From positions 731-64,730 of the forward strand of contig DATKYS010000132.1 in the NCBI GenBank assembly GCA_035528375.1: 64,000 nucleotides of DNA. The letters are read 5' to 3'. The translations under genes and the position numbers were made by a program. The DNA comes from a bacterium. GTDB lineage: Bacteria > RBG-13-66-14. Of this stretch, positions 40,067-40,549 are shown one piece after another. Numbering within the stretch: the first letter of the stretch is position 1; every line of letters begins with the position of its first letter. A model generated the notes under the pieces. That model saw only the letters and a program-made list of their open reading frames with translations, had not been told where the DNA came from and did not search any database.

Positions 40067-40230
40067 GCTCGCGGCGTTGACTTTCGAATGGATTAACCGT
40101 TCGTCGCGGAACCGGGGTCCAGCGCCCCGCGCTTCAAGAAAAAATAAGGAACTGAAAAAGGGCTCCACTCGCGGCGTTGACTTTCGAATGGATTAACCGT
40201 TCGTCGCGGCTACGCTGGCGGCTCAGCCGC
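40067..40230 (-). repeat. Tandem pair of the tRNA-3'-flank element (copies B 40067..40133 and A 40161..40230) downstream of tRNA-Ser(GGA)
   Basis: Both end (tRNA sense) in CAACGCCGCGAGTGGAGCC and carry GACGAACGGTTAATCCATTCGAAAGTCAA. Homologous to the elements at 40390..40549 and 59593..59760. Confidence 0.65.
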
Positions 40231-40324
40231 TGGCGGAGAGGGAGGGATTCGAACCCTCGAGGGGAGGATAAGTCCCCTACGCGATTTCCAGTCGCGCCCC
40301 TTCGACCAACTCGGACACCTCTCC
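40231..40324 (-). tRNA. tRNA-Ser (anticodon GGA), type II with long variable arm
   Basis: Reverse complement GGAGAGGTGTCCGAGTTGGTCGAAGGGGCGCGACTGGAAATCGCG...GAGGGTTCGAATCCCTCCCTCTCCGCCA. Confidence 0.9.
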
Positions 40325-40389
40325 GCGTGCCTGGAGTTCGAAGCTGTCAGTGGGGCGTTAGGCTGCATCTTTAATACTTGAATTAATAC

Positions 40390-40549
40390 AGCTCGCGGCG
40401 GTTGTTATTGAATGTATGGAACCGTTCGTCGCGGCTACGCTGGCGGTGCATTGTACTGACAGATTTTTAAGCAGGCTCCGCTCGCGGCGGTAACTTTTAA
40501 ATGGATGAAACCTCTCCCCGCGGAATCGGGGTCCAGCGCCCCGCGCTGG
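40390..40549 (-). repeat. Tandem pair of the tRNA-3'-flank element (copies D 40390..40449 and C 40472..40549) downstream of tRNA-Ser(CGA)
   Basis: Copy C (tRNA sense) GCGCGGGGCGCTGGACCCCGATTCCGCGGGGAGAGGTT...TACCGCCGCGAGCGGAGCC is nearly identical to copy 2 after tRNA-Leu. Confidence 0.65.

Follow-up and report, generated by a model that had tools for sequence, protein, structure and literature searches.

The BOX elements of Streptococcus pneumoniae are built as boxA-boxB(n)-boxC, with distinct terminal modules, and are not known to be tied to tRNA genes. In Escherichia coli, the 3′ external transcribed spacer (3′ETS) of glyW-cysT-leuZ is an sRNA sponge, a stable regulatory RNA made from a tRNA operon spacer. 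In an archaeon, a single short palindrome, restricted to its lineage, follows many tRNA genes at a short, constant spacing and has been proposed as a 3′ maturation signal. Enterobacteria and Pseudomonas carry REP/BIME mosaics, which include GTAG-tagged REPs and go together with RAYT transposases (PMC2817692, PMC3733652), and attL/attR repeats belong to integrative elements that target tRNA genes (PMC8138268).

Here we report a previously undescribed repeat family with units of ~80–100 nt that is confined to one branch of uncultured Candidatus Coatesbacteria, starting from a 64,000-nt stretch of contig DATKYS010000132.1 (the window). Like BOX, it is a modular intergenic repeat with one module present in a varying number of tandem copies, and is predicted to fold, but the sequences are unrelated. 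Like 3′ETS and internal transcribed spacer (ITS) RNAs, the units are non-tRNA sequence that by layout belongs to a tRNA transcription unit, placed between tRNAs or behind them, and their location right behind a tRNA would fit release by processing; those RNAs, however, are single and locus-specific, whereas the Coatesbacteria units form a multi-copy family. The archaeal palindrome shares with them the restriction to a lineage and the fixed short distance from tRNA 3′ ends, but has no tandem units, no boxes and no inverted upstream partner. Both REP/BIME sequences and the Coatesbacteria repeats are short, GC-rich and extragenic, form hairpins and sit where transcription units end, in mosaics with alternating orientation and variable copy number; genuine GTAG-tagged REP hairpins lie between the arrays here. 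The Coatesbacteria unit itself differs in being 80–100 nt long and mostly non-palindromic, with two linear conserved boxes and without a GTAG/CGTC tag. It is also anchored to tRNA gene ends, while REP/BIME sequences are spread over many operon ends.

The window holds six copies on the tRNA strand (A-type) 3′ of tRNA-Ser(CGA), tRNA-Ser(GGA) and tRNA-Leu(TAG), all of them present as listed in the original prediction. Under a covariance model the four best copies have E-values between 1e-15 and 1e-18, and the two hairpin-variant ones lie between 1e-5 and 1e-3. On the minus strand, a sigma-70-like promoter (TTGACA-17-TATACT, 40653..40681) lies upstream of tRNA-Ser(CGA) (40550..40640, CCA encoded) and is the sole promoter-like site between 39600 and 40800; a scan of this interval found none belonging to tRNA-Ser(GGA). 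Copy 1 (40474..40549, minus strand, 87.9 bits) begins at the base after the tRNA CCA with the hairpin P1, CCAGCGC-GGG-GCGCTGG (40533-40549), after which come ACC, box 1 TTCCGCGGGGAGAGGTT, an AU-rich stretch and box 2 CCGCCGCGAGCGGAGCC. Copy 2 (40390..40449, minus strand, 26.3 bits) has lost the hairpin, so that CCGCCAGCGTAGC is joined to CGCGACGAACGG, and has a diverged 3′ end. After tRNA-Ser(GGA) (40231..40324, minus strand) come copy 3 (40161..40230, minus strand, 33.5 bits), with a variant hairpin GCGGC-TGA-GCCGC immediately 3′ of the CCA (40218-40230), and copy 4 (40061..40133, minus strand, 76.6 bits), with the hairpin AGCGC-GGG-GCGCT (40121-40133) and a 3′ stretch of 42 nt identical to copy 3. 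At the third locus, on the plus strand, tRNA-Leu(TAG) (59508..59592) contributes its own CCA (59590-59592) to the hairpin CCAGCAT-G-ATGCTGG of copy Leu_1 (59590..59662, 82.3 bits), which TTTTT follows; Leu_2 (59690..59760, plus strand, 76.1 bits) is the final unit before a radical SAM gene at 59828. In the window, the covariance model found no copy at tRNA-Phe, at tRNA-Thr or on the 3′ side of tRNA-Ala.

The four copies predicted around the two tRNA-Ser genes thus stand, but the prediction had missed an inverted, diverged copy and a degenerate second one (39797-39990, plus strand) directly upstream of tRNA-Ala(CGC) (39716..39791, minus strand). The first of these (39797..39883, plus strand, inverted relative to the tRNAs) belongs to a sister subfamily, G-type. 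It scores 28.8 bits with R1 and 99.2 bits with R2, its core is homologous to the A-type core, and the end with its hairpin, CCCCCCC-ATCTT-GGGGGGG (39805-39823), adjoins the tRNA-Ala 5′ end. The second (39896..39990, plus strand, repeat group D2) has an intact 5′ half and a degenerate 3′ half. Between the direct and inverted arrays is a GTAG-tagged REP-like GC hairpin (39993..40033, minus strand), and the layout is equal in the related contigs L155 and L157. Two details of the predicted element did not hold. Its 3′ motif, supposedly always CAAyCGCCGCGAGyGGrGCC, has five matches at ≤3 mismatches (0.17 expected; 0 of 100 shuffles reach five), but CGCCGCGAG is the only 3′-end sequence common to all six A-type copies in the window. 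Its start had been read as a near-copy of the tRNA 3′ end; in the window CCGCCAGCG is instead a hairpin arm, namely the 3′ arm of the variant GCGGC-TGA-GCCGC, or a derivative in which that hairpin is deleted.

Across the family the unit measures ~80 nt, or ~100 nt including the linker, and runs from the P1 hairpin through GCUGGACC, box 1 UCCGCGGGGAGAGGUU, an AU-rich middle of ~20 nt that includes AUUC, and box 2 GCAACCGCCGCGAGCGG to a U-rich tail UUUUCUCAAUUC. P1 has 5–7 bp and begins 0–3 nt after the tRNA CCA or shares it. Both sides change in six of its seven pairs, and its covariation score is 0.37, against 0.11 when shuffled (0 of 500 reach 0.37) and 0.04–0.09 with slid partners. Support for structure beyond P1 is weak. 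A possible loop-to-tail pair occurs as GC in 19 copies, CG in 11 and UA in 2; a long-range helix, GUUC-C-GCGG/CCGC-GAGC, is 92% paired and nearly invariant, and its outer part fails in G-type; a box 2 hairpin and a GGTT/AACC helix were rejected, as they are not kept across copies. Folded singly, most copies are no more stable than shuffles, and Leu_1 folds as a long hairpin terminating at UUUUU (z = −2.1). Whole spacers give nested duplexes between A-type and inverted G-type units (A:G′), with z = −3.6 and −5.6. The core is more conserved than the linkers: its boxes can be aligned across genomes at 70–80% protein identity and the linkers cannot.

Related Coatesbacteria contigs contain ~60 copies, and homology within the family extends over loci and genomes alike. 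The leading copy of 19 arrays begins 0–4 nt after the CCA of a tRNA, on the tRNA strand (Ser, Ser, Ala, Leu and Lys), which bears out the original claim of a genuine repeat family tightly tied to tRNA 3′ ends. G-type units are always inverted and turn their hairpin to the adjacent 5′ end of a tRNA-Ala or tRNA-Glu gene; four of four G-type arrays end 0–5 nt from that 5′ end on the opposite strand. The P1 end always points toward the tRNA gene, with A-type direct at 3′ ends and G-type inverted at 5′ ends. In ~232 kb of subclade DNA every model match falls inside an array. One pair of copies in L155 directly follows the stop codon of a protein gene, Wzi. Arrays at the Leu(TAG) locus occur in seven contigs whose radical SAM proteins are 70–100% identical, and the Ser-Ser-Ala and Lys-Glu loci show the same orthologous persistence; a close sister lineage has the same operons and lacks the element. 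In wider searches, the loose pattern CCGCGRSGARMGG-N18-24-CGCCGCGAG hit 120 loci in genome contigs, of which 119 were chance matches in GC-rich genomes and one, L063, was real; a tighter pattern gave 21 loci in metagenomes, three of them real (L130, L135 and L140).

Sequence comparison indicates local tandem duplication as the main route by which arrays expand and contract. Adjacent copies are 90–100% identical in L063, L142, L144, L153, L155 and L157, and the nearest neighbours of a copy are tandem neighbours or orthologues. Because copy number varies mostly in this manner, from one to at least five per array, the regular tandem-pair layout seen in the window is not general. Some copies decay: those of L148 are degenerate, and the copy at the window tRNA-Ala has been lost, while L146 and L148 keep an A-type copy 3′ of tRNA-Ala. 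The repeats are also a cause of assembly breaks, with contigs L063, L130 and L152 terminating inside arrays.

The layout of the operons suggests what the units may do. Each operon has one promoter-like site upstream of its first tRNA and none in the spacers, which the repeat has lengthened to 230–500 nt, and the earlier suggestion of co-transcription with the tRNAs is accordingly plausible. Copies sit where further genes follow on the same strand, and a terminator-like hairpin is found only after the last tRNA of an operon. At tRNAs that end a unit (Thr, Glu and the window Ala) there is a plain GC hairpin instead, with a T-run for Thr and Glu. We infer transcription and processing of the units solely from this layout. 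In the reading we prefer, with a probability of roughly 45%, the repeats would be modules co-transcribed with the tRNAs in operon spacers and trailers and would have a structural role at the RNA level, where they probably mark or protect tRNA ends. The operon's one promoter would drive tRNAs and units alike, and the units would act as structural spacer modules, in which P1 may cap or delimit the tRNA 3′ end and, once the spacer is released, form its 5′ terminus. A spacer in which an A-type array faces an inverted G-type array could fold into a long imperfect duplex that brings the neighbouring tRNA ends together, resembling the processing stem of rRNA operons and offering a plausible endonuclease substrate; against this step, direct-only spacers (Ser to Ser, Leu to radical SAM) cannot form the A:G′ duplex. 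The conserved boxes might be read by sequence, via a protein or RNA partner, and new loci would arise rarely, by ectopic copying. The close sister lineage with these operons but no element weighs against this reading.

Variable copy number, decay in L148 and L142 and the loss at the window tRNA-Ala look more like dispensable or selfish DNA than like an essential signal, and a tRNA-targeting mobile repeat, raised in the original prediction, is a live rival although we do not choose it. It would be a selfish, non-autonomous element (MITE/PATE/REPIN-like) with strand-specific, hairpin-recognising insertion at tRNA gene ends by an enzyme supplied in trans, new copies entering beside the tRNA and older ones decaying distally. 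Such an element would suit the five unrelated tRNA species that carry the repeat, the hairpin end turned toward the tRNA on either strand, and the Wzi-site pair of L155, which is absent from the orthologous sites of L157 and L153. Fresh and decayed copies stand side by side in one genome, scores in L142 fall from proximal to distal (89, 91, 60 and 21 bits), duplicated hairpins in L140 and L142 repeatedly meet at the junction ACC|AGCG, and GTAG-type REPs share the same spacers. We nevertheless consider this origin rather unlikely. No transposase, integrase or reverse transcriptase was found among the 30 window open reading frames searched against Pfam, and none is listed among the genes of the retrieved loci, most of them syntenic; a RAYT (Y1) transposase in particular was not found in either set. 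The units lack terminal inverted repeats, target-site duplications are not consistently present, and no near-identical copies occur at separate loci of one genome. Arrays are kept at the same loci in genomes 20–30% apart in protein sequence, the Wzi site is the only ectopic gain seen, no tRNA locus offers a precise empty site, and plasmids, phages and viral contigs gave no matches. P1 is an untagged palindrome of 13–19 nt in an otherwise non-palindromic unit, unlike the imperfect 20–40-nt palindrome of a REP/REPIN with its GTAG or CGTC tag at one end. PATEs have subterminal hairpins at both ends and insert, with no duplication, 3′ of a fixed target of 4–5 nt; here the left hairpin directly adjoins ...CCA, or TAA in L155, and the right end has a palindrome of only 2–6 bp, while no TnpA was seen and no guide spacer lies 5′ of the hairpin.

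A further proposal, which we regard as distinctly improbable, is that the units are discrete structured RNAs cut from tRNA precursors or, alternatively, a mobile element that recognises tRNA gene ends. As an RNA, the hairpin with ACC could mimic the acceptor end of a tRNA, perhaps stabilised by a pseudoknot between loop and tail, and the two boxes might bind a dedicated protein or RNA partner; the tRNA operons of the lineage would then serve a second purpose, the manufacture of a multi-copy small RNA. As mobile DNA, it would be a new kind of element for which the hairpin allows recognition of tRNA gene ends on either strand.

That the boxes are conserved as sequence rather than as structure, and are partly palindromic (CCGCGG and GCCGC-GA-GCGGC), could also point to BIME-like repeats acting at the DNA level, as tandem sites for a nucleoid-associated protein or topoisomerase near heavily transcribed tRNA genes. 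The units lie on either side of tRNA genes and point away from them, in a mosaic with REP hairpins. P1 covaries, however, which points to single-stranded folding and not to a fixed site in a duplex; a duplex site would not require strict co-orientation with transcription at tRNA 3′ ends, and no candidate protein is known. We think this explanation has little chance of being right, and the prospects of weak or leaky terminators or attenuators behind tRNAs, there to tune the relative output of genes farther downstream, are just as poor. Many copies have a U-rich tail after box 2, the Leu_1 hairpin ends at a U tract, the box 2 hairpin and T-rich tail of a G-type copy in L157 were scored as terminator-like, and other tRNAs have a hairpin at the equivalent position. 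Yet a consensus scan for termination signals, one of the options first entertained, detected no canonical ones on the element strand of the window arrays. An intrinsic terminator has a GC-rich stem of at least 5 bp with a U tract directly behind it; the box 2 hairpin of most copies has only 2–4 bp and stands apart from the U tract, and promoterless downstream tRNAs need read-through.

Att-site remnants, the scars of repeated integration and excision by elements that target tRNA genes, are largely refuted and very improbable, in keeping with the initial doubt about simple island scars. True repeats of tRNA fragments, here direct repeats of the 3′ portion from T-loop to CCA, are found only at the Lys loci: each L130 unit is preceded by an exact 16–18-nt copy of tRNA-Lys positions 59–76, with a degenerate form in L155. 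The Lys arrays have a period of ~103 nt, with neighbouring units up to 98% identical, and their pattern can be explained by tandem duplication of the unit with its boundary in the T-loop. The Ser, Ala and Leu loci have no tRNA fragment before their units, one unit type stands behind unrelated tRNAs and one protein gene, and the flanks are conserved housekeeping synteny. The integrase and cargo already reported as missing are indeed absent from the 30 window open reading frames compared with Pfam and from the gene lists of syntenic loci. A retro-copy model for L130, in which the 18-nt fragment is the tRNA part 3′ of position 58, was set aside, tandem duplication being simpler for the same data, and a 33-nt tRNA-Lys duplication in L157 is only apparent, from a scaffolding overlap around an N run.

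Comparison with known families yielded no other identity. With Rfam 15, only tRNAs reach the gathering score in the window and nothing credible covers the elements at E-values up to 10; L135 likewise has no match. A match to a CRISPR direct-repeat model was weak (16.9 bits, E = 2.2), and a CRISPR array was rejected, as the variable segment is semi-conserved (consensus GTnATTC) and there are no cas genes. Reading the boxes by eye as sigma-54 (GG-N10-GC), ECF or sigma-70 promoters fails on spacing, which differs between copies, and scans find none; a small conserved open reading frame has no conserved start codon or frame; and the consensus fits neither integron attC sites (R″/R′ cores) nor Xer/dif-like sites. 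RtcB is adjacent, which prompted a check for a self-cleaving ribozyme or Y RNA; there was no Rfam signal at E-values up to 10 and no supported multi-helix fold. Origin from a degenerate tRNA-Ser pseudogene, considered for GGAGAGGT and GTTGGTCG, which the units have in common with tRNA-Ser, was rejected: the tRNA model does not match the units.

Spacers in tRNA operons are usually short and unremarkable, whereas in these Coatesbacteria a conserved modular repeat is locked to tRNA boundaries on both sides. Whether processed RNA or mobile DNA, the family is a practical marker for the Coatesbacteria subclade. If mobile, it would represent a way of targeting tRNA gene ends so far undescribed in bacteria. 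If its units are processed RNAs, they would constitute a new class of tRNA-gene-linked RNA in an uncultured phylum and a natural analogue of engineered tRNA-spacer processing cassettes.

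Repeat copies in the window are real and far above chance, as follows from motif counts set against shuffled sequence and from covariance-model scores. ARAGORN and Rfam call six tRNA genes here: tRNA-Phe (25344-25419, +), tRNA-Ala(CGC) (39716-39791, -), tRNA-Ser(GGA) (40231-40324, -), tRNA-Ser(CGA) (40550-40640, -), tRNA-Leu(TAG) (59508-59592, +) and tRNA-Thr (63706-63782, -). Two related copies lie 3' of each of Ser(CGA), Ser(GGA) and Leu(TAG) in the tRNA sense, as the original prediction held, and its coordinates at the serine genes (40161-40230 and 40067-40133 after Ser(GGA); 40472-40549 and 40390-40449 after Ser(CGA)) are confirmed. 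Its 3' motif has five matches at up to three mismatches, against 0.17 expected, a count reached by 0 of 100 shuffles. A covariance model made from 23 copies gives 76-88 bits (E ~1e-15 to 1e-18) to the best four in the window and 26-34 bits to the two hairpin-variant copies; an Rfam search of the window places no family over the copies, even at E up to 10.

An alignment of ~60 copies gives the layout of a unit and an array period of 96-104 nt. Each unit opens with a hairpin, P1 (stem 5-7 bp, loop 3-5 nt), followed by ACC (ATC in one subfamily), 4-6 variable bases, box 1 (TCCGCGGGGAGAGGTT), ~20 nt of AT-rich sequence with a semi-conserved GTnATTC, box 2 (GCAACCGCCGCGAGCGG(A/G)GCC), a T-rich tail with the pattern TTTTCTCAATTC and ~15 more variable bases before the next unit. 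P1 is the sole well-supported helix: its stem variants include CCAGCGC/GCGCTGG, CCAACGC/GCGTTGG, GCAACGC/GCGTTGC, CGAGCAT/ATGCTCG, CCAGCTT/AAGCTGG, GCGGC/GCCGC and CCCCCCC/GGGGGGG, both sides are changed in six of seven pairs, and the covariation score of 0.37 (0.11 in shuffles, 0 of 500 reaching it) falls to 0.04-0.09 with slid partners. What had been read as a near-copy of the tRNA 3' end (CCGCCAGCG) instead belongs to the hairpin variant GCGGC-TGA-GCCGC as its 3' arm, or is a hairpin-deleted derivative. Loop base 3 covaries in Watson-Crick fashion with base 4 after P1 across different stem variants (GC 19, CG 11, UA 2; A-type, alignment A6, columns 11 and 25), a hint of a small pseudoknot or else of an alternative hairpin. 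A long-range helix of GUUC-C-GCGG with CCGC-GAGC is 92% paired and nearly invariant, its outer part does not hold in the inverted subfamily, and single units mostly gain no stability over shuffled sequence. Because that helix is invariant and these folds are unremarkable, the two boxes are kept as sequence, without demonstrated structure.

The hairpin end of a unit always points toward a tRNA gene, since A-type units are placed directly at tRNA 3' ends and their G-type sisters inverted at 5' ends. In 19 arrays the first A-type copy begins 0-4 nt past the tRNA CCA on the tRNA strand; 17 come from model matches, and the first copies at Ser(CGA) of L148 and Leu of L145 (L numbers denote related Coatesbacteria loci) were placed by eye or synteny. 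The preceding tRNAs are Ser(CGA), Ser(GGA), Ala(CGC), Leu(TAG) and Lys(TTT), and in those with discriminator A (Leu, Ala) the CCA doubles as the first three bases of P1. G-type units have a C7/G7 hairpin and a core homologous to A-type, and are found only inverted, in tandem; a gap of 0-5 nt separates their hairpin end from the leader modelled for tRNA-Ala (window, L146) or tRNA-Glu (L155, L157). The window order is Ser(GGA), A, A, GTAG-tagged REP hairpin, inverted G, inverted G, Ala, and L155 and L157 repeat this layout as Lys, A(n), REP, inverted G(n), Glu. Copies occupy sites with more genes downstream on the same strand, and none lies at tRNA-Phe, tRNA-Thr or tRNA-Lys(CTT), or 3' of tRNA-Glu or of tRNA-Ala in the window. 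On inspection, the sequence after CCA of Phe, Thr, Glu and the window Ala holds a plain GC hairpin, plus a T-run in Thr and Glu; for Phe, Thr and Glu it starts 0-9 nt after CCA (window 25416-25440 and 63687-63704, L155 12345-12372). As the element-free Phe, Thr and Glu genes have one too, hairpins at tRNA 3' ends are general in the lineage, and P1 may derive from such a plain hairpin.

GC-rich, GTAG-tagged hairpins, in which a palindrome accompanies GTAGGGCGG or GTAGGGGCG, form a cluster 3' of tRNA-Ala and also lie between direct and inverted arrays (window 39414-39422, 39572-39580, 39648-39656, 40024-40032 and 48590-48598, minus strand; L155 17900-18300, L157 5190-5225, L148 9290-9330); the lineage thereby appears to have a second REP family, of the classical kind. 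A linker motif, TCCCGTTGGTCGCT, recurs between units and also in the element-free lineage (L148 9400-9440 and 9760-9800, L153 11800-11850 and 12035-12090, L155 17770-17790, L149 9290-9320); it has GTTGGTCG in common with the tRNA-Ser D-loop and, in some copies, its pairing partner is the box 2 end (GAGCGAC/GTCGCTC). In L149, which comes from a distant Coatesbacteria, GCAGCCCTGAGTG...CGCCRGYCACCGKCAACGRCG lies 3' of each of the two tRNA-Ser genes (9250-9400 and 9690-9790, minus strand); because this shared 3' sequence is a different one, the sister lineage's tRNA spacers have their own repeat.

At 86% identity, the radical SAM protein beside the Leu array matches a relative named Candidatus Coatesbacteria RBG_13_66_14, and the nearest named relative of RtcB is likewise from Coatesbacteria. 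Orthologous loci were obtained via three flanking proteins (radical SAM protein, RtcB and Ddl), with L063, L130, L135 and L140 added by DNA pattern scans; the models detect 53 A-type copies, on the tRNA strand, and nine G-type copies over ~232 kb of sequence that represents seven or more related genomes. Two more distant Coatesbacteria, whose RtcB and Ddl are respectively 66% and 64% identical to those of the window lineage, share these tRNA operons but contain zero copies, even with search filters off, so the family is restricted to one subclade. L135 carries two good copies within positions 1-300, with no detectable tRNA upstream in a contig that begins 84 nt before them; the upstream sequence holds GGTTCAAACCC and a motif, GTGATAATCC, found again at 650-670.

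Tandem pairs, a regularity stressed in the original prediction, are a trait of the window and not of the family, given that the orthologous Leu locus holds two copies in the window and L140, three in L145, four in L142 and L144, and at least five in L063. Adjacent units, linkers included, are often 90-100% identical (L063, L142, L144, L153, L155, L157), which shows local tandem duplication or homogenisation; the remaining nearest neighbours are orthologous copies of other genomes, such as the Ala copies of L146 and L148, or L152:377, nearest to L146:9531 at 0.91. Scores in the L142 array fall from 89 bits (tRNA-proximal) to 21 bits (distal), L148 has degenerate Ser and Ala copies, and the window has lost its Ala copy. 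In the arrays that follow tRNA-Lys in L130 and L155, every unit's linker includes the terminal 16-18 nt of that tRNA (positions 59-76), exact in L130 and with the array period unchanged, most simply a tandem duplication with its unit boundary in the T-loop and not an att scar. An identical 55 nt flanking an N run in L157 (4850-5075; tRNA-Lys 3' part plus element start) was rejected as a biological duplication and is a scaffolding overlap. L063 and L130 terminate inside arrays and L152 at a truncated copy, so the repeats cause assembly breaks. It is established that the family is lineage-restricted and vertically retained, that its covarying hairpin is anchored at tRNA gene ends, and that it expands by tandem duplication within apparent single tRNA transcription units.

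One sigma-70-like promoter lies ahead of each operon's first tRNA; none was found inside tRNA spacers or for tRNA-Leu(TAG). About 10 nt before the tRNA-Leu 5' end is a conserved 8-9 bp hairpin, CGGCGGGGG-N6-CCCCCGCCG (window 59477-59500), kept at the equivalent position in L140, L142, L144 and L145. A conserved CCCTCCGATG, like an anti-Shine-Dalgarno and unlike a Shine-Dalgarno sequence, precedes the radical SAM start codon (window 59819-59830; same place in L140, L144 and L145). The RtcB RNA ligase gene (window 40755-42191, +) is divergent beside the tRNA-Ser(CGA) promoter, which it adjoins in all fetched Coatesbacteria loci (window, L146, L148, L149, L152); since the distant repeat-free lineage has this linkage too, it predates and is independent of the repeat.

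We infer, with low to moderate confidence, that the units share a transcript with the tRNAs and serve as spacer modules at the RNA level. P1 would delimit or protect the tRNA 3' end and make up the 5' end of the excised spacer, and the conserved boxes would be recognised by a partner. When folded, the complete spacer between Ser(GGA) and Ala and that between Lys and Glu in L155 give nested A-type/inverted G-type duplexes (z = -3.6 and -5.6); with A and inverted G arrays facing each other, the spacer would fold into a long processing stem.

The principal alternative is a selfish element that would target the ends of tRNA genes, whichever the strand. Such an element fits the inward-facing hairpins on both sides of tRNAs, but the units are without terminal repeats or target duplications. 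Fresh and decayed copies are mixed, yet dispersed identical copies are lacking: no genome compared has near-identical copies at different loci, so nothing points to a recent genome-wide burst. An A-type pair has been gained immediately past the Wzi stop codon in L155 (TAA, then CCAGCGC...) and is absent from the orthologous sites of L157 and L153, so a non-tRNA site can be reached, though rarely, whereas orthologous positions are otherwise kept across long evolutionary distances. Nor was an enzyme found: Pfam scans of 30 window ORFs gave no integrase, transposase or reverse transcriptase, bearing out the integrase's reported absence, and gene lists of the fetched, mostly syntenic loci contain none. 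Plasmids, phages and viral contigs gave no sequence similar to the repeat.

REP/BIME and BOX-type mosaic repeats are closest in behaviour to the family, and BIME-like protein-binding DNA is a possible, minor reading, as are leaky terminators; the unit lacks the defining marks of REP, being untagged and not a simple palindrome. Integrase scars are essentially excluded, and att scars, CRISPR arrays and every Rfam family were rejected, the repeat failing the defining test of each. By position, the family resembles transcribed tRNA spacers that yield stable RNAs. What is unusual in this family is the strict anchoring of the hairpin end at tRNA gene boundaries, the pairing of direct and inverted subfamilies, and the conservation of two boxes at the sequence level.
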